Part shown: positions 201 through 64,000 of the stretch, in pieces
Position numbering within the stretch: the stretch's first letter is position 1
Layout of the letters: each line of letters starts with the position of its first letter
Source of the DNA: a virus
Taxonomy: Duplodnaviria > Caudoviricetes
IMG/VR virus record: IMGVR_UViG_3300028591_000070
Location: 321,935-385,934 of that record
Direction: 5' to 3' (one strand)
DNA: 64,000 nt
Notes under the pieces: model-generated
The model's database searches: none
What the model saw: only the letters and a program-made list of their open reading frames with translations
What the model was told of the DNA's origin: nothing
Program-made: the position numbers and the translations under genes

Positions 201-1436
201 TTAGTTAATCTCCTGTGGTGGTGGATTTGTAGCAAACATATCTGCATAATGTAGATACCATTGTAAATCGAAAATTGGCATAGACCATTTCTTACCAGAA
301 ATTCTGTCATAATTCCACTGTCCTGCATGAGTTTCTACAAGACTTGCAACTTTATGCCAGAAAGAAGGTCGTACTGTTTTATCAGCAAACTCATCTAGAA
401 TTTCTTTTCCAACAAGTGGATGGTCACTATTTGTATGAGCATCACATTCATGATACTTCCAAAGGTCGTGCAAAATTGCTCCAATCAAAAGAGCATCTTT
501 ATCTTCATTATTAAGCTGTCTAATTTCGCAAAGCTGTGCAGCATAAAAATAAACTCTCTTAGAATGGTTTACAAGACCACCAAACTTTTCACCTTTGCAT
601 TCTTCTTTCAAAAGGTCAATAGACTCTTTTCCAGTCTTATGATACTTTCCACTTGAAGAAGCAGGACCTGTAAAGAATCTCTCAATTGTTCTTTTATCTT
701 GAGCTGCAACAAGTTTCTTAAGCTCATCTGCATAACCTGTAAGATCAGCTTTATAGAAACGATTTTTTCCATATCCGCCAACTCCAAGTTCATCCTTAAA
801 TGTTTCAATAAACTTATTAGCGAGTTCTTCACCTGCTAAAGAAGGACCTGTTTCAGCTGGAGTTTCTTCAGTTTTTTCTTCCGAAGTTGGATTTGAAAGA
901 ACATATGAAGGTGAATGCTGCTCGATTGCATTTCTCAATGCATCATATGAAGGTTTTGTGTCCAAGTCGTTAGCTGAAACATAATATGTTCCTTTTGTGT
1001 AAAGAGACTCCTTAAGAATTTTTGCTCCAGGTTTTACAGTTTCCAAAAAGTCTTTTGTAGGCATTGTCAAAACTGTAGCATTGCTAAAGTCCCACTTATC
1101 ATTTTTGCTATCATAAGCTTTTTGATCTACATGATAGAAAAGAATAATATCTGTTTCAATCTCTTTAAGATACTGGTCAATTGTCTTGTTGACAGAACTA
1201 ACGGTGTAAGATGTACCAGATTTAGAATATCCAGATTTTACTTCTACTTTAATAACTGCATCATCTTCACAAGTAATAAAAATATCACCCTGCTGATGGT
1301 TGTTCTTCAATAAATTACTTGGATTTTTCTCAACTTTCTTAATCTTATATTTTGTAAGATAGTTTTTATTCAAATAATCTACAAGATAGTCTTCTCCATT
1401 TGTTCCAAGACTAAGATTTTTTGCTGGAATTGCCAT
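201..1436 (-). CDS. PD-(D/E)XK nuclease-like domain fused to an HD phosphohydrolase
   Basis: N-terminus GxxGE..GD..VEVKS; C-terminus PASSSGKYH..GGLVNH..ILHDLWK..HP..HAGQW..LHYAD, typical of phage HD domains. Confidence 0.65.
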   Translation of the reverse strand: MAIPAKNLSLGTNGEDYLVDYLNKNYLTKYKIKKVEKNPSNLLKNNHQQGDIFITCEDDAVIKVEVKSGYSKSGTSYTVSSVNKTIDQYLKEIETDIILFYHVDQKAYDSKNDKWDFSNATVLTMPTKDFLETVKPGAKILKESLYTKGTYYVSANDLDTKPSYDALRNAIEQHSPSYVLSNPTSEEKTEETPAETGPSLAGEELANKFIETFKDELGVGGYGKNRFYKADLTGYADELKKLVAAQDKRTIERFFTGPASSSGKYHKTGKESIDLLKEECKGEKFGGLVNHSKRVYFYAAQLCEIRQLNNEDKDALLIGAILHDLWKYHECDAHTNSDHPLVGKEILDEFADKTVRPSFWHKVASLVETHAGQWNYDRISGKKWSMPIFDLQWYLHYADMFATNPPPQEIN

Positions 1437-1459
1437 CTAATTTCTCCTATAGTAAAATA

Positions 1460-2137
1460 TTAACACTTTTTTGCTATCTCTTCAAAAGAAAGAATTTTAT
1501 GATTATAATCCCAACAAACATCAATATAGTCAAGTGGGTCAACAAGCTTTCCATAAGAAGATTTAACTGATGTATCAATATCTAAGTTTTTCTGTTTTGT
1601 AAGCATATATTTTTTAACAATTTCCATCATTGCCCAGTTTTTGCAATCTCTGTTAAAATAGTTTGCATCTACTGGAAATTGATGAGTATGCCCATGAACA
1701 TTATAAAAATTTGTACCAGGCCTTAAATAAACCGGTTCATGGCTAAAAATATATTTTCCCTCATAAATAAAAGGATATTCAAAAACTTTTTCAAATCCTA
1801 ATGCTGTAAAAAAGTCAATAGGATTATCATAATTATGTCCTGAATGATATGGCATTGTATCTCTGTCATGATTACCTAGAACAAGCCAAAGATGCTTATC
1901 ATTCTCTCTCATTCTGTCAATATAAGTTTTTAATTCTTGGAATGAAACATTATCATTCATACAGATATCGCCCAAATTAAGAATAGTTGAACCTCTTGGT
2001 AATTCATCAAAAGGTTTAAGCAAATCTTCATTCATTTGTTTAAGACCTTCTTCAGTAGGCTCATAAGGACGATTAGAATAATAAATTAAATTTTTATGAC
2101 TGAAGTGGGTGTCAGATGTGATAAAAAAATTTTCCAT
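1460..2137 (-). CDS. calcineurin-like metallophosphoesterase
   Basis: SDTHFSH, NLGD, GNHD, SHEP and HGHTH motifs. Confidence 0.9.
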   Translation of the reverse strand: MENFFITSDTHFSHKNLIYYSNRPYEPTEEGLKQMNEDLLKPFDELPRGSTILNLGDICMNDNVSFQELKTYIDRMRENDKHLWLVLGNHDRDTMPYHSGHNYDNPIDFFTALGFEKVFEYPFIYEGKYIFSHEPVYLRPGTNFYNVHGHTHQFPVDANYFNRDCKNWAMMEIVKKYMLTKQKNLDIDTSVKSSYGKLVDPLDYIDVCWDYNHKILSFEEIAKKC

Positions 2138-2335
2138 TTACTTCTCCGTTGGCCATGACTCAGGTGGGATTATAACTCTAGCATGGCAAGCTGGACATTT
2201 TATATAAAAATAATAATTGTTTTCTTTTGAGATTCGACCTTCAAGCTGGAGATCTTCTGCTCCAGCTTCTAGAAGTCTTTTACAAACTGAACACCTCACC
2301 CTAATGGATGAGGCTAGTTTTTCATTAGTCGACAT
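2138..2335 (-). CDS. small zinc-ribbon protein (start probably MSTNEK)
   Basis: CSVC...CPAC; the ATG at 2335 overlaps the end of the upstream gene. Confidence 0.6.
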   Translation of the reverse strand: MSTNEKLASSIRVRCSVCKRLLEAGAEDLQLEGRISKENNYYFYIKCPACHARVIIPPESWPTEK

Positions 2336-3002
2336 TTTCCTGCTCGTTCTGAACCAGACCCATAGCATTCTCGAGCATTTCAAGACGAAGGAACTTTTCC
2401 TGAACTTCATCGTCAATATTTTTCTTGCTCTTTACCTTGTCATAGAGTCCAAGAACATATCCATAATCCGAAGCTTTTGTAAATTTAAGCTCATCAGACT
2501 TTGGAGCATGATTTTCCTTAAGAAGCTTGTCATCATCAAACTTAATCTGCTGATAAGCATTCATTGAAGTAATTGCTTCTCCAACTTCAGTTGAAGCTGT
2601 TGCATCAACATCTTTTACATCAACTGTAAGGTGAATGCCATAACCTTCAAGAGCTGAAATATAAGGTGTGAGCCAATCTGTCTTGCCAATCTCATTTAGA
2701 GTTTTAACAGTATCGCGAAGCTTCATAAAAAGCTGTGAAGTCTTATCCTTAATTTCTGCATCCGAGTCCAGGTCAAATGGGTTATCATTCTTCCATCCTT
2801 TACCTTTTGTAAATGCAATATCGCGTGCACCTGCAAGAATTTTTTTATTTACGCCATAAGTTTTTGCTGTATCTGCAAGCATCATATTCATAGTCTTTAC
2901 TGCCTGCTTTTTTTCAGATACAACATCCAAAGAAAGGTTTAACAATTCCTGAGCTGTCTTTACATTTTCGAGCTCATCTTCATTTTTCTTGTGAATAGCC
3001 AT
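2325..3002 (-). CDS. hypothetical helical protein, weak resemblance to T4 DsbA/GapR-like DNA-binding proteins
   Basis: good RBS (GGAGG); LADTAKTYGVNKKIL segment is reminiscent of the family. Confidence 0.4.
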   Translation of the reverse strand: MAIHKKNEDELENVKTAQELLNLSLDVVSEKKQAVKTMNMMLADTAKTYGVNKKILAGARDIAFTKGKGWKNDNPFDLDSDAEIKDKTSQLFMKLRDTVKTLNEIGKTDWLTPYISALEGYGIHLTVDVKDVDATASTEVGEAITSMNAYQQIKFDDDKLLKENHAPKSDELKFTKASDYGYVLGLYDKVKSKKNIDDEVQEKFLRLEMLENAMGLVQNEQENVD

Positions 3003-3027
3003 TCCGGCCTCCTATATTATTTTTTAA

Positions 3028-3606
3028 TTATATTAACAGATTTATAGCTCTTTTAACATCTTCTTCAGTTAAACCTATAATTGGATTGGTTTGAATAAAA
3101 TGCTCACCAAATAAAAAGAGGTCAACATCACTATCATCAAAGATTACAAACTTTTTAATTTCTGGATGACGCTTAAGATAACAATCTATTTGAAGTCCTC
3201 TATCAAATAATTTTTCAACCTTAAATGGCTCTGGATTTTCAGAGCTAAACCATTCCAAATATTTTTCGGTATATTCATCATCAGACTCATAAGCAATTTT
3301 GTCTCTAATAATAATACCATTTTTCTTCAATTCTTTTTTAAGTGGCTTTGCCAAAAACTTTGCATCTTTTCTTTTACTGAAATAAAAATTTCTCCAAGAA
3401 GAACTCATTACTATTTTACAATTTGTTGCTTTTTTAATTTTACCCAAAAGCGCACAAGCTCTTGGGTCATGCATTACACCTTGCTCTCCTCTCGAAAGTA
3501 AAAGTCTATCATGATATTTTGATGTGAAAAAATTATCTGAGTTTAATACTCCATCTATATCCAAGAAAATAACTTTAGATGGGTCTTCTTTTAGATGTTT
3601 TTTCAT
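3028..3606 (-). CDS. HAD phosphatase, Swiss-army-knife RNA-repair-like (HAD_SAK_2 type)
   Basis: FLDIDGVLN, IVMSSSWR, RGLQI, FVIFDD, GLTEEDV. Confidence 0.85.
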   Translation of the reverse strand: MKKHLKEDPSKVIFLDIDGVLNSDNFFTSKYHDRLLLSRGEQGVMHDPRACALLGKIKKATNCKIVMSSSWRNFYFSKRKDAKFLAKPLKKELKKNGIIIRDKIAYESDDEYTEKYLEWFSSENPEPFKVEKLFDRGLQIDCYLKRHPEIKKFVIFDDSDVDLFLFGEHFIQTNPIIGLTEEDVKRAINLLI

Positions 3607-4043
3607 TATTTAATCCAAGTATGATTTTCAAAATCTAGTTCATAATGTCTTTCATCTTCAAAATAATCACAAAATTCATGTGGTAAAAGTTCACCATTAA
3701 GCCATTTTTTAGTAAGTGTTTTGTCCTCATGCCATTTACCATTTAGAACGACCATACATTTTGGATTTAAGTCTTTAATTAGAGTATGATTATTTGCTGT
3801 AGAATAACTATCACAGCTCCATTTTTCTAAATCAAGATTGGTAACCTCAATTTTAATCGCATTACCTAATTCAAAATCTCTAGCATAAGCTCCGCATATT
3901 AAGCGATAATCTGAAACTTTATCATTAGGATTAGTACATCCATTTAATATATATCTAATCTTTTTCATAAGTTTTAAAATTAACAGAGGTAGCCTTAAGG
4001 CTACCTCTTTTACAAAGTTTTTACTTTGTTGTTTCTTCTTCAT
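3606..4043 (-). CDS. hypothetical protein
   Basis: ORF coupled to its neighbours. Confidence 0.55.
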   Translation of the reverse strand: MKKKQQSKNFVKEVALRLPLLILKLMKKIRYILNGCTNPNDKVSDYRLICGAYARDFELGNAIKIEVTNLDLEKWSCDSYSTANNHTLIKDLNPKCMVVLNGKWHEDKTLTKKWLNGELLPHEFCDYFEDERHYELDFENHTWIK

Positions 4044-4314
4044 CTTCCTTTACTTTAGGAGGACGACCAACCATCAAAGAGTGTGAAAAACCACCACGAG
4101 CAGAACGAGCATTATGAATCATTGTGTTCAATGTTTCAACTGTCTGATTTGGAAGAATTTCATCCTTAACTCTTGCAGCATACTCTTTAGAAATGCCGTG
4201 TCCAGTAAAAGTATCAACACTCTTACGAATCATTTCAATTGTAGAATTAAAATTTGAATTATTAACTCTACCCAATGAACGAAGGATGTCTCTAAATGTA
4301 AATGATGTATTCAT
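4021..4314 (-). CDS. hypothetical early protein
   Basis: directly downstream of the sigma70-like promoter at 4338-4367 and RBS GAGGT. Confidence 0.65.
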   Translation of the reverse strand: MNTSFTFRDILRSLGRVNNSNFNSTIEMIRKSVDTFTGHGISKEYAARVKDEILPNQTVETLNTMIHNARSARGGFSHSLMVGRPPKVKEDEEETTK

Positions 4315-4389
4315 ACCTATCTATTACCTCTTTATAGATTATACTTAATAATATAATAAAAATTCAAGAAAAGTTCAACTAATTTTTTT

Positions 4390-4557
4390 ATGTTGGGGAA
4401 AATTGTTCTATTTCAAAATGAATACTACATCTTAAGAGATGCTAATACCTATGGTCCTTATTATTCATTGGCTGAGGCCGAGTTTCACAGAAACCACCCA
4501 GAAATATCAAAGCTTACAAAAATCAAAGAATATAAATTTATAAAAAACTTTGATTAA
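4390..4557 (+). CDS. 55-aa hypothetical protein, not in the ORF track (MLGKIVLFQNEYY...)
   Basis: translated by hand; ends at the bidirectional terminator. Confidence 0.45.
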   Translation: MLGKIVLFQNEYYILRDANTYGPYYSLAEAEFHRNHPEISKLTKIKEYKFIKNFD

Positions 4558-4584
4558 AAAAGGACCTTAAAAATAAGGTCCTTT
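4558..4584. terminator. bidirectional terminator
   Basis: AAAGGACCTTA-aaaa-TAAGGTCCTTT between convergent ORFs. Confidence 0.7.
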
Positions 4585-17841: not shown

Positions 17842-18193
17842 TCTGTCCTCCTATAATTGATTCTTCTTTAATATATTTTTCCCAACCTATTTTTGTAAAA
17901 ACATCTTTAATAAGATCTTTCTCATTAGTTGGCTCTGGATTTTTCTGTATCTCAGATTGTACATCCATTGGCTGCTCAGGCTGTGTCTGGTCATTATCAG
18001 CAATAGCTTCTGCTTGAGCGCTCTCTTGAGGGTCTAATAATACAGAATTGATTTTAGTAACACCTAAAGTATTTATGGGATCATTTATGGGATCATTTTG
18101 CTGTTGAGGCTGCTGATTTATGGGATCATTCATTCCTTCAATACCCCATAGTTGACCATCTTCTTTTAGGTATTTTAAATATCTATCATCCAT
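17819..18193 (-). CDS. low-complexity Q/P/N-rich protein (start probably MDDRY)
   Basis: TAATG stop/start overlap with the upstream ATPase; NDPIN three times. Confidence 0.55.
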   Translation of the reverse strand: MDDRYLKYLKEDGQLWGIEGMNDPINQQPQQQNDPINDPINTLGVTKINSVLLDPQESAQAEAIADNDQTQPEQPMDVQSEIQKNPEPTNEKDLIKDVFTKIGWEKYIKEESIIGGQNANGQNS

Positions 18194-19581
18194 TAAAACT
18201 TTTTCTCCGTTTTTTGAGCCAACCAAGGTAATGCTTTTTTAATTGCAAAAACTTTCATAAGCTTTTGGCTAGCAATATTCAAATTATCTTTATATTCAGG
18301 TTTACTTGAAAGATAGAGTTTTTCTTCCTCAGCTAAAGCAATAGCATTTCTACACCAGAATGCAACAAACTCTTCAAACATACGGAATGTAAGTTTACGA
18401 TTTACTATTACTTTATTTCCAAAAACTGGAATATCTTTTTCATAAGCTTCAATAATAATTCCTAAAGCTGTATAAACACACTGCTTACCCCAATCACGGA
18501 ACCATTTTGGAAGATTTGAATATTCTCTTTCTTTACATAATCCACCAAAAGCAGATTTAAGACGGTCCATGAACTGTTCCAAAGTAAGTTTAACTTCAAG
18601 TGATTCTACACGGTCTACGACTGCTGAGTCAATTTCATATAATTCAAGATTCGATACAAAAATAACAGATGAATTGAAGATAAACTCACGAGGCATACCA
18701 CCAGTTTTTTCAACTTCTTCTTCATTCTCTCTAAGCATTCCTTTAAATGTATATGCATCAACTGGATTTATGCTTTCATTTATAACAACTTGGCCATCTC
18801 TTTTAACAACCAACTTATTTTCATCTAAAGCATCCTTGTCAAATTCAATTTTATAGCTTTCACCTAAATTATCCAATGTGGCATTCATGGCATTTAAGGT
18901 TCTTTTATTAGGTGAAACAAATACAGGTTTATGCAATGCCTCTGGGTCTAAAACACCTTTCATAAAGTTTGCTACTGGACTTCCTTTTCTAAGCATCTTA
19001 TCATTATCATCTAAGACAATTACATAATTCTGTGAATACTTATAAAACCAAGGAGCAACTGTTGTAATTGCATCTCCTAATTCACCACATTCATAATGAT
19101 ATTTTTTACCAGAGCTTGAAATATATTTTTTTAAAGTTTCAGTAACTGTATAAGTATTGTGATGAATCATTCCATCTGTGTCAGTATACAAATGTTTTTC
19201 AGAGTCAATAGAAAATCCATAAACTGGCACATTTTCTGCAATCTTTCTAATAGAAGTACATTTTGTATTTAAGTAAGGAAGATCATCCCCAACTTCAAAA
19301 TCCTTAACAAATCTAGTTGTACAGTCATTTGGTTCAAAGAATGGTTCAACAGAGATAAGGTGTTCTCCGGCTAATTTCTTAGAAATACCATTATCAAACT
19401 GTATTCTATAAAGGTCATCTCTTTTTCTAATAAAGCCATTTATAGGAGTCCAAACACCGTTTTCATCTTGGATTTTAATTTCATCATCTATCTTTACAAA
19501 TTGGCCATCTTCAAACTTTACATTATATTTTTCTTCAAGTTTACTAAAAAGTTCGCCAATTGAGAGAGTTATAGTCTTCAT
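18193..19581 (-). CDS. split-intein C-fragment (aa 1-142) fused to the C-extein of a phage AAA+ ATPase
   Basis: HINT blocks B (AGEH), F (VYGFSIDSEKHLY) and G (IHHN|T); extein TYTV..VIVLDDND (Walker B)..VIFVSNL..AVVDR (sensor/arginine finger); Walker A GK absent. Confidence 0.85.
   Translation of the reverse strand: MKTITLSIGELFSKLEEKYNVKFEDGQFVKIDDEIKIQDENGVWTPINGFIRKRDDLYRIQFDNGISKKLAGEHLISVEPFFEPNDCTTRFVKDFEVGDDLPYLNTKCTSIRKIAENVPVYGFSIDSEKHLYTDTDGMIHHNTYTVTETLKKYISSSGKKYHYECGELGDAITTVAPWFYKYSQNYVIVLDDNDKMLRKGSPVANFMKGVLDPEALHKPVFVSPNKRTLNAMNATLDNLGESYKIEFDKDALDENKLVVKRDGQVVINESINPVDAYTFKGMLRENEEEVEKTGGMPREFIFNSSVIFVSNLELYEIDSAVVDRVESLEVKLTLEQFMDRLKSAFGGLCKEREYSNLPKWFRDWGKQCVYTALGIIIEAYEKDIPVFGNKVIVNRKLTFRMFEEFVAFWCRNAIALAEEEKLYLSSKPEYKDNLNIASQKLMKVFAIKKALPWLAQKTEKKF
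19156..19581 (-). mobile_element. intein C-fragment without block A and without an endonuclease
   Basis: ends HHN with Thr at +1; begins at Met with an in-frame TAA four codons upstream. Confidence 0.8.
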
Positions 19582-19610
19582 ATAAGATAATTAGTATTTA
19601 AAATAAAAAC

Positions 19611-19628
19611 GGCCAACTTTTGTTGGCC
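19611..19628 (-). terminator. terminator after the sigma factor gene
   Basis: GGCCAAC-tttt-GTTGGCC plus a U-tract on the minus strand. Confidence 0.7.
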
Positions 19629-19655: not shown

Positions 19656-20324
19656 TTAGCTCAAAGCTTCTCGAATATCATCATAAGACATAGAATATTT
19701 CTTAGAAAGCTCTGCAATATTTCCTTTAAACTTTTCCTGTCCAAATTTTAATGCAAATTCGGCATCTTTTCTCGAGGCAGAACACTTTTTACAAATTGAG
19801 GCCATTGTTTCACCTTCTGATTTAAGGATAAACAATTTGCGCTGTTTCTCAGAGAGTTCTTTCAATGTTTTTTCAAATGCTTGATTTATAATCTCTTTAG
19901 CCATAGGAGCGACTTCATTTGGAGTTTCAGCAGCTGCACTTTGGTCAAATAATGAAAGAGTTTCACCTTCCTTCATAGTGATTTCAGCTGATACTTCATT
20001 ATCATACTTTTTCTTGGCATGAGAAATAATATCTCTGTTCATTGAATTCCAATACCCATTAAGACGAATCCAGATTGTCCATGTTGCTGGTTTCTTAATG
20101 TCATTTAATCTTACGCCTGCCATTTGATTTTTGAACTTCTCATAAGCTGTTTGAGTCCATTCAGCATATTCCTCTTTGTCAAACTTTCTGTTTGTGAGGG
20201 ATAAAAGTTCATTATGTTTTTTGATTCGAAGTGGCTCATATCTGTTCCAAAGCTCGAGCTCAGCTTTTATGTCACCCTGTTGTGACTTTTCAACCAACTC
20301 ATAGTCGGTATAAATTTTTTCCAT
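19656..20324 (-). CDS. phage RNA polymerase sigma factor (SigH/ECF-like sigma70 family)
   Basis: TDYELVEKSQQGDIKAELELWNRYEPL (region 1.2/2) and LSEKQRKLFILKSEGETMASICKKC (region 4 HTH). Confidence 0.75.
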   Translation of the reverse strand: MEKIYTDYELVEKSQQGDIKAELELWNRYEPLRIKKHNELLSLTNRKFDKEEYAEWTQTAYEKFKNQMAGVRLNDIKKPATWTIWIRLNGYWNSMNRDIISHAKKKYDNEVSAEITMKEGETLSLFDQSAAAETPNEVAPMAKEIINQAFEKTLKELSEKQRKLFILKSEGETMASICKKCSASRKDAEFALKFGQEKFKGNIAELSKKYSMSYDDIREALS

Positions 20325-63250: not shown

Positions 63251-63902
63251 TAGTATTGCTTTTGTATTATATCTTGGAAAACTTTCATCTTGGATTTATA
63301 ATCTGATAATGTCTAAATCTAAAGATAAACAAGTTGATAATTCTTATGAAAGAAGAAATGTTTGTCGAAAAACTGCAAATGCAAATTTTATTGAAATGAC
63401 AACTTATGGTTTAATTGCTATCATTGCATTCATTTTAGGAAAATAAAATATGGAAAAATTAGACTTCAAAAAATTAAATGTTCCTACTGATGGACAGTCT
63501 GTAACTGAAGTTGAAATAGCAAAATCAGGTGTTATTTCTGAAGATACAGCAGACCAACTTGCGATGGAAGAACCTAAGGAAGATGAAACTAGTTTAAGCT
63601 ATGTATTAAAACATGGCACTAAAATGGAATGGATGAATATAGATTGAAGGTGGTGAAAAATGGGTTATTTATTTTTATTTTTAATTTGTGTTGCATTTAT
63701 TGCATATTTTATTTATGATTATGACCAAAATATCAAGTATTTTGGCTTTCTATTAGAAAGAAATAAAATTGGTGATTTTCTTAAAAAGCATGATTTTATT
63801 TATTTTATGACTTGTTTTTTTGGTACTGCAATTCCTGTTGTCGGAGCTATTTATTTCTTTATAAAACTATTTATATTTTTAATAAATAAAATACCTGGAT
63901 AA
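63237..63902 (+). CDS. three small ORFs, two of them membrane proteins
   Basis: hydrophobic segments. Confidence 0.45.
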
Positions 63903-64000
63903 TAATTGAATTTTTTGAAAAAAATAAGTATAATCTTATTATGGTTTTTAGCAAATAACAAGCTATATGCTTGATTAAAAAATATTTATAGGAGATTCTT

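Follow-up and report, generated by a model that had tools for sequence, protein, structure and literature searches.

The stretch of DNA analysed here (the window, 64,000 nucleotides (nt)) spans bases 321935-385934 of the 385,934-bp virus record IMGVR_UViG_3300028591_000070 and carries on its minus strand the gene for a protein, P0001, that appears to be the C-terminal half (C-half) of a AAA ATPase interrupted by a split intein (Table 1). The protein starts MKTITLSIGELF and contains AGEH (His74), KHLY (His130) and GMIHHN (residues 137-142), after which it continues TYTV, and neither a Cys/Ser block A nor a GxxGxGK Walker A motif can be read in the translated open reading frame (ORF). An earlier note, made from the letters of the window, had described the ORF as a C-terminal intein fragment (Int-C) of 142 amino acids (aa) with blocks B (AGEH), F and G (HHN), fused at TYTV to the C-terminal part of a AAA ATPase and lacking block A and Walker A, and the translation agrees with it on each of these points, the 142-aa Int-C giving way to Thr+1 and the last 320 aa.

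The N-half gene and the interrupted ATPase

When we searched the genome with the N-terminal region of a homologue, one match came up, the gene for the N-terminal half (N-half) of the ATPase. Its product aligns with the N-termini of intact ATPases and consists of a 129-aa N-extein that ends in the Walker A lysine, reading ...DKRHALIAGDPGVGK (GDPGVGK), and a 16-aa N-terminal intein fragment (Int-N) made up of Cys130 (Cys1) and 15 further residues before the stop codon (Cys-Met-Asp-Ala-Ser-Glu-Leu-Ile-Thr-Ile-Gln-Val-Pro-Asp-Asn-Phe). A distant gene of this form, GxxGxGK-[C/S/A]-x(10-25)-stop, had been predicted by the earlier note, which had also expected the halves to be far apart; the N-half indeed lies outside the window, on the same strand as the C-half and 243,350 bp from it (140,757 bp across the record ends). 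The genome holds one N-half and one C-half, and a homologue search found no intact ATPase paralogue in its 385,934 bp. The two ends of the record (bases 1-144 and 385791-385934, the latter at window positions 63857-64000) repeat each other over ~144 bp, a one-base indel in an A-run aside, and because of this overlap the genome, which is listed as linear, is probably complete, being closed or terminally redundant. On a related contig of 366,067 bp from another sample an N-half (P0055, 90% identical) and a C-half (P0004, 86% identical) likewise occupy separate loci.

We found 38 homologues of the C-half protein. More distant homologues of 564-617 aa align only to C-half residues 143-462 and have a different N-terminal region of their own, ~220 aa long and ending ...DKRHALIAGDPGIGK before TYTV. 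The intein-free proteins P0022, P0023, P0034 and P0036 read GDPGIGK directly followed by TYTV and are colinear across the junction, bearing out the statement of the earlier note that TYTV follows GK in this ATPase family. Since GK joins TYTV in these intein-free homologues, the C-half protein resumes at the Thr of GKT, and the alignment puts the insertion point precisely at the Lys/Thr boundary within Walker A. The intact homologues P0022 and P0034 match the Pfam family AAA (PF00004) from the P-loop onwards with 23.7 and 25.3 bits (cut-off 21.2), a cut-off that neither half reaches alone, and in PHROGs the ATPase extein belongs to phrog_1250 (unknown function), to which the match of the window protein is weak. 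In the alignment Walker A falls in the N-half, and the Walker B DD and the other invariant motifs fall in the C-half; an ATPase cannot be formed by either fragment on its own, as the Walker A Lys and Walker B lie on different fragments.

Table 1. Coordinates of the two half-genes and of the features around them (window positions unless marked otherwise)
Feature	Position	Strand	Description
C-half gene P0001	18193..19581 (genome 340127-341515)	-	462 aa + stop; ORF list, translation
Int-C, residues 1-142	19156..19581	-	Strand KTITLSI, helix 8-19, block B His74, block F His130, block G His141-Asn142
Thr+1 codon	19153..19155	-	Thr of Walker A GK[T/S], putative transesterification nucleophile; T143 invariant in 18 Int-C relatives
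C-extein, remainder of AAA ATPase	18196..19155	-	320 aa; Walker B VIVLDDND (D191-D192), FxSN and DR motifs; invariant columns
ACTAATTA start-proximal motif	19588..19595	-	6 nt before C-half ATG; holds in-frame TAA 19591-19593
Terminator of upstream gene	19605..19628 (approx.)	-	Hairpin GGCCAAC/GTTGGCC + T-run; read from the sequence
N-half gene	genome 96339-96776; also L001 1489-1926	-	145 aa; homologue N-terminal part searched against genome

Fold and catalytic residues of the intein halves

The AlphaFold2 (AF2) model of C-half residues 1-165 (predicted local distance difference test (pLDDT) 85.6) was compared with the PDB by Foldseek, and the top 50 matches are all intein, BIL or hedgehog HINT domains. 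The best match is the RadA intein of Pyrococcus horikoshii, which is itself inserted in a P-loop (E 1.8e-7), and further matches include Cat (6dsl; target-normalised TM-score (TMt) 0.71), VidaL (6vgv; E 1.7e-4) and PolB16 (8cpo). The model leaves residues 1-7 without structure, ahead of a helix at residues 8-19. The contiguous relative P0010, a database entry not traced to a contig, gives an AF2 model (pLDDT 88.9) whose best target-normalised structural match is VidaL (TMt 0.81, root-mean-square deviation 3.3), and in which the region equivalent to Int-N forms the strand KIKISIG and the one equivalent to the start of Int-C a further strand, LVEITVE, followed by the same helix. Because of these modelled strands, Int-N is predicted to supply beta1-beta2, with the split right after beta2. 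The model thereby puts the split site at the S1 position, which has been assigned to both VidaL and PolB16 (PMC13014065).

The best PDB matches of our Int-C family profile are atypically split inteins. It retrieved PolB16 (8cpn; E 0.07, residues 29-86), a weak signal and the only one at sequence level for a solved protein, with CatC as the third-best match at a marginal E of 0.58; the Met of 8cpn that aligns with the Int-C Met of the family is read as the start of the PolB16 Int-C. The Pfam family Intein_splicing (PF14890) is matched by 8 of 18 Int-C relatives (best E 6.4e-5). A PHROG scan of P0001 gave no intein match, and searches with the C-half gave no match among GenBank phages by tblastn and none in the PDB as a single sequence.

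The Int-N is exactly 16 aa long, with an invariant Cys1 (Cys130), in 12 aligned clade members, and among 18 Int-C sequences, down to 39% identity, H74, H130, N142 and T+1 (T143) are invariant and H141 is nearly so. Between distant relatives the intein is 54-58% identical, against 43% for the extein, and between close relatives the intein is somewhat less conserved than the extein (66-80% against 81-94%). Block B has Ala for Thr in nearly all members (AGEH, ADDH; that is AxxH and not TxxH) around the invariant His74, and in block F a Gly takes the place of the Asp found in many inteins; both variants are family-wide and occur in the contiguous members as well. The earlier note had singled out the residues of these two blocks as non-canonical and unusual, and both substitutions are present, but as conserved family traits and not as signs of decay. 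Its view that Thr at +1 is also unusual has to be given up, as Thr is a usual nucleophile at +1, and inteins are inserted in the P-loop more often than anywhere else (PMC4513877, PMC4760082).

Proposed trans-splicing and the rival explanations

Our data suggest that the two genes very probably encode an atypically split class-1 mini-intein (16-aa Int-N, 142-aa Int-C, Cys1 and Thr+1) in the Walker A motif of a jumbo-phage AAA ATPase, the exteins of which would be joined by trans-splicing. This is supported because the fold, the catalytic residues, the insertion site, the contiguous relatives and the co-occurrence of the two halves all fit, and the class-1 features found comprise a HINT fold, Cys1, the block F His, the block G His-Asn, Thr+1 and insertion in a conserved motif. 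In the proposed mechanism, the Int-N strands beta1-beta2 (ELITIQV) would dock on the unpaired first Int-C strand, KTITLSI, and complete the HINT fold, Cys1 would make a thioester which Thr+1 would attack, and Asn142 would cyclise with the aid of His141 and His130. Release of the intein (16 + 142 aa) would leave the two exteins ligated as an ATPase of 449 aa whose P-loop, GKT, is intact.

Several observations weigh against trans-splicing of this kind. The Pfam scan of P0001 itself gave no HINT or intein match (PF14890, PF01079), nor did a PF14890 search of the whole genome, and the lack of a match for either suggests that the Pfam models do not reach an intein family this divergent. The Ala for Thr in block B and the Gly for Asp in block F also count here, as some inteins that carry changes like these show poor splicing or chiefly cleavage. 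Co-expression of the two halves is inferred from a motif that they share, ACTAATTA. The predicted complex of Int-C with N-half residues 96-145 counts on both sides: it scored 0.58, against 0.01 for the best control, and is rated as weak support, the 50-residue piece being folded with low confidence (partner pLDDT at least 42) and the runs having at least 39% of contacts in common. Of 80 solved complexes 58 reach the mark for such scores, as do 2 of 110 mismatched pairs, but at 0.60 or below it is reached by only 7 of the 80 and by both of the mismatches; because solved split-intein complexes exist, the pass may moreover reflect likeness only.

The block B and block F variants and the lack of a Pfam match for P0001 would also suit halves that associate without splicing, either as a non-covalent two-chain ATPase held together by the HINT module or with C-terminal cleavage by Int-C as the only reaction, and the atypically split PolB16 intein does show up to 25% C-cleavage (PMC13014065). 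We nevertheless regard this as improbable, given that the residues which serve the chemistry and not mere docking (Cys1, His74, His130, His141-Asn142 and Thr+1) do not vary in relatives as distant as 39% identity, contiguous members that must splice in cis to obtain a working P-loop also have the AxxH and Gly variants, and ATP binding is unlikely for a P-loop with 158 residues inserted in it. That the ORF is instead an artefact of misassembly or frameshift at ~19582, a decaying pseudogene or the remnant of a dead intein is far less probable still, and the sole point in its favour is that the N-terminal part is absent from the window. The same start, length and stop occur in many independent assemblies. 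Eight more clusters, 77-95% identical to the C-half and 459-462 aa long, have the same start, one of them representing 454 sequences, and this recurrence of start and length excludes a local misassembly or frameshift, including the misassembly that the earlier note had named as a possible refutation. As that note had argued in calling the C-half an independent gene, an in-frame TAA stands 4 codons 5' of its ATG, within ACTAATTA, with a terminator farther upstream; at the other locus, the N-half ends in TAATAATAA, three stop codons and then a hairpin terminator. Both halves are conserved, with invariant catalytic residues, and they occur together again on the second, 366-kb contig.

Relatives, known split inteins and expression signals

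An exhaustive N-side profile search yielded 99 cluster representatives, 59 of which are intein-free and have T (41), S (17) or N (1) after GK, that is at the +1 position. Split N-fragments, with a stop 12-37 residues past GK, account for 25 of the 99 (21 Cys-first and 4 Ser-first; mode 28-29 aa), contiguous inteins for two (P0107 and P0108, with P0010 from the first search as a third), and the remaining 13 are truncated and have no Walker A. Most relatives within the intein family have an Int-N of 27-30 aa that ends after the helix following beta2, and the Int-N of the window clade ends just before that helix and is the shortest well-supported one in the family; a single 12-aa Int-N in the census may be truncated. 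The Int-C fragments, in an alignment of 18, all begin at the same point. Ser-first inteins comprise the split N-fragments P0077, P0082, P0097 and P0147 (Int-N 28-29 aa) and the contiguous P0010, and any such Ser1 relative paired with Thr+1 would have cysteine-free catalytic nucleophiles, for which one natural atypically split example has been named, PolB16.

The halves lie much closer together on a 213,638-bp Joint Genome Institute (JGI) contig (L012, positions 472-4581), where a 239-aa N-half with a 26-aa Int-N is found 1.8 kb upstream of a 526-aa C-half, with a 319-aa reverse-strand gene and a 165-aa ORF between them. The 319-aa gene is left unclassified by Pfam, and its atlas leads (DUF559, Vsr, NUMOD3) are all under 0.9; it may encode a free-standing homing endonuclease within a 'fractured gene' arrangement. 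A plausible history therefore has three stages, in which a contiguous mini-intein at the same site would have been fractured in place, as on this contig, and its halves then dispersed, with Int-N shortened from ~28 aa to 16 aa in the window clade; the range of arrangements suggests this order. An alignment-based search for related loci found six, one of which is split-type and lies on a contig that is 13% complete and has no N-half, and a related-loci search with the single C-half protein found none. On a 40,838-bp IMG/VR contig (L002), a 231-aa ORF (338-1033, minus strand) that adjoins a split-type C-half ends ...WGC followed by the intein-like FDLDTLIE...; by eye it resembles the N-terminal portion of an anaerobic ribonucleotide reductase, and it is a possible second intein gene, split or fractured, in this phage.

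Canonical Int-N fragments are ~100 aa long, and the junction residues of the P. horikoshii RadA intein are Lys-1 and Thr+1. Inteins with a much shorter natural Int-N, which are valued for protein ligation, are already known as a kind, with about five described: PolB16 (15 aa), VidaL (16 aa), AceL-TerL (25 aa), TerL CAT (30 aa) and GOS-TerL (37 aa), so that the Int-N of natural atypically split inteins ranges from 15 to 37 aa (PMC13014065). VidaL, which is cysteine-dependent, resembles the window intein in layout, with a 16-aa Int-N split directly after beta2 (PMC13014065), Cys1 and a mini-intein without endonuclease domain. It differs in showing no detectable sequence similarity, being absent from the PDB sequence and profile matches, and the window intein, set beside it, has Thr at +1 and the P-loop of a AAA ATPase as its extein. 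PolB16 OarG (8cpn/8cpo) shares the S1-type split and the very short Int-N (PMC10189870) and is a moderate structural match (TMt 0.48-0.59), but comes from a sheep gut metagenome and has a PolB DNA polymerase as host, Ser1/Ser+1, a 15-aa Int-N and a longer Int-C (168 aa). AceL-TerL, GOS-TerL and Cat (6dsl, a good structural match) are, like the window intein, phage-borne, atypically split and inserted in an ATPase, the large terminase; their Int-N of 25-37 aa, split at the S2 site after helix alpha1, resembles the 27-30-aa Int-N of the wider family, whereas that of the window clade stops before this helix at 16 aa and the host gene is another one. The P. horikoshii RadA intein (4e2t/2lqm), the top structural match, also sits at the end of an ATPase P-loop (PMC4513877), but it is contiguous, cis-splicing and archaeal, and its host is a RecA-fold recombinase. 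The searchable literature yielded no account of a split intein in this family of ATPases, a search that left subscription papers and intein databases outside its reach, so that a prior description is possible.

An Int-N short enough for peptide synthesis is sought for protein semisynthesis and live-cell protein editing, and few natural cases exist. To these the locus adds a 16-aa/142-aa pair of which both halves are identified and which is without detectable sequence similarity to VidaL, as well as a whole family in which Int-N length is graded and some members are Ser1 variants. It is quite possible, if slightly short of probable, that the inteins of these phage AAA ATPases form an untapped natural series of atypically split inteins, with Int-N from 16 to ~30 aa on one Int-C scaffold, including a 16-aa Cys1/Thr+1 member that is perhaps orthogonal to VidaL and Ser1/Thr+1 relatives. 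Active family members would provide new ligation tools, and the series would be a natural experiment on the migration of the split site and the dispersal of halves, from 1.8 kb to 243 kb. For phage biology, splicing would mean that a conserved jumbo-phage ATPase is made only by joining two gene products encoded a quarter-megabase apart. The practical interest to protein engineers is real and the biological interest moderate.

The motif ACTAATTA has 47 copies in the genome. In 32 of them an ORF start (taken as the first start of ORFs of at least 80 aa) follows within 25 nt, against 0.87 expected, with a spacing to the start of exactly 4 nt in 23 copies and 6 nt in 4. Chance occurrence was considered, the total of 47-48 being below the ~66 estimated by hand from base composition, and was ruled out by the position of the copies at ORF starts. 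The motif looks like a promoter or an initiation signal for very short leaders. Besides the copy at the C-half, another stands 4 nt before the ORF directly preceding the N-half, at the head of the N-half operon, and the N-half, which starts with GTG behind a strong Shine-Dalgarno sequence (AAAGGAGAG) 3 nt after the stop of that ORF, is translationally coupled to it; because both halves stand behind ACTAATTA, their simultaneous expression is probable. The terminator upstream of the C-half isolates it as a transcription unit of its own. The earlier note had attributed this terminator to an unrelated sigma gene, and the hairpin and T-run are there as described, while the identity of the gene (19656-20324) as a sigma gene is plausible, its match to Sigma70_r4_2 being weak (E 0.002) and under the Pfam cut-off.

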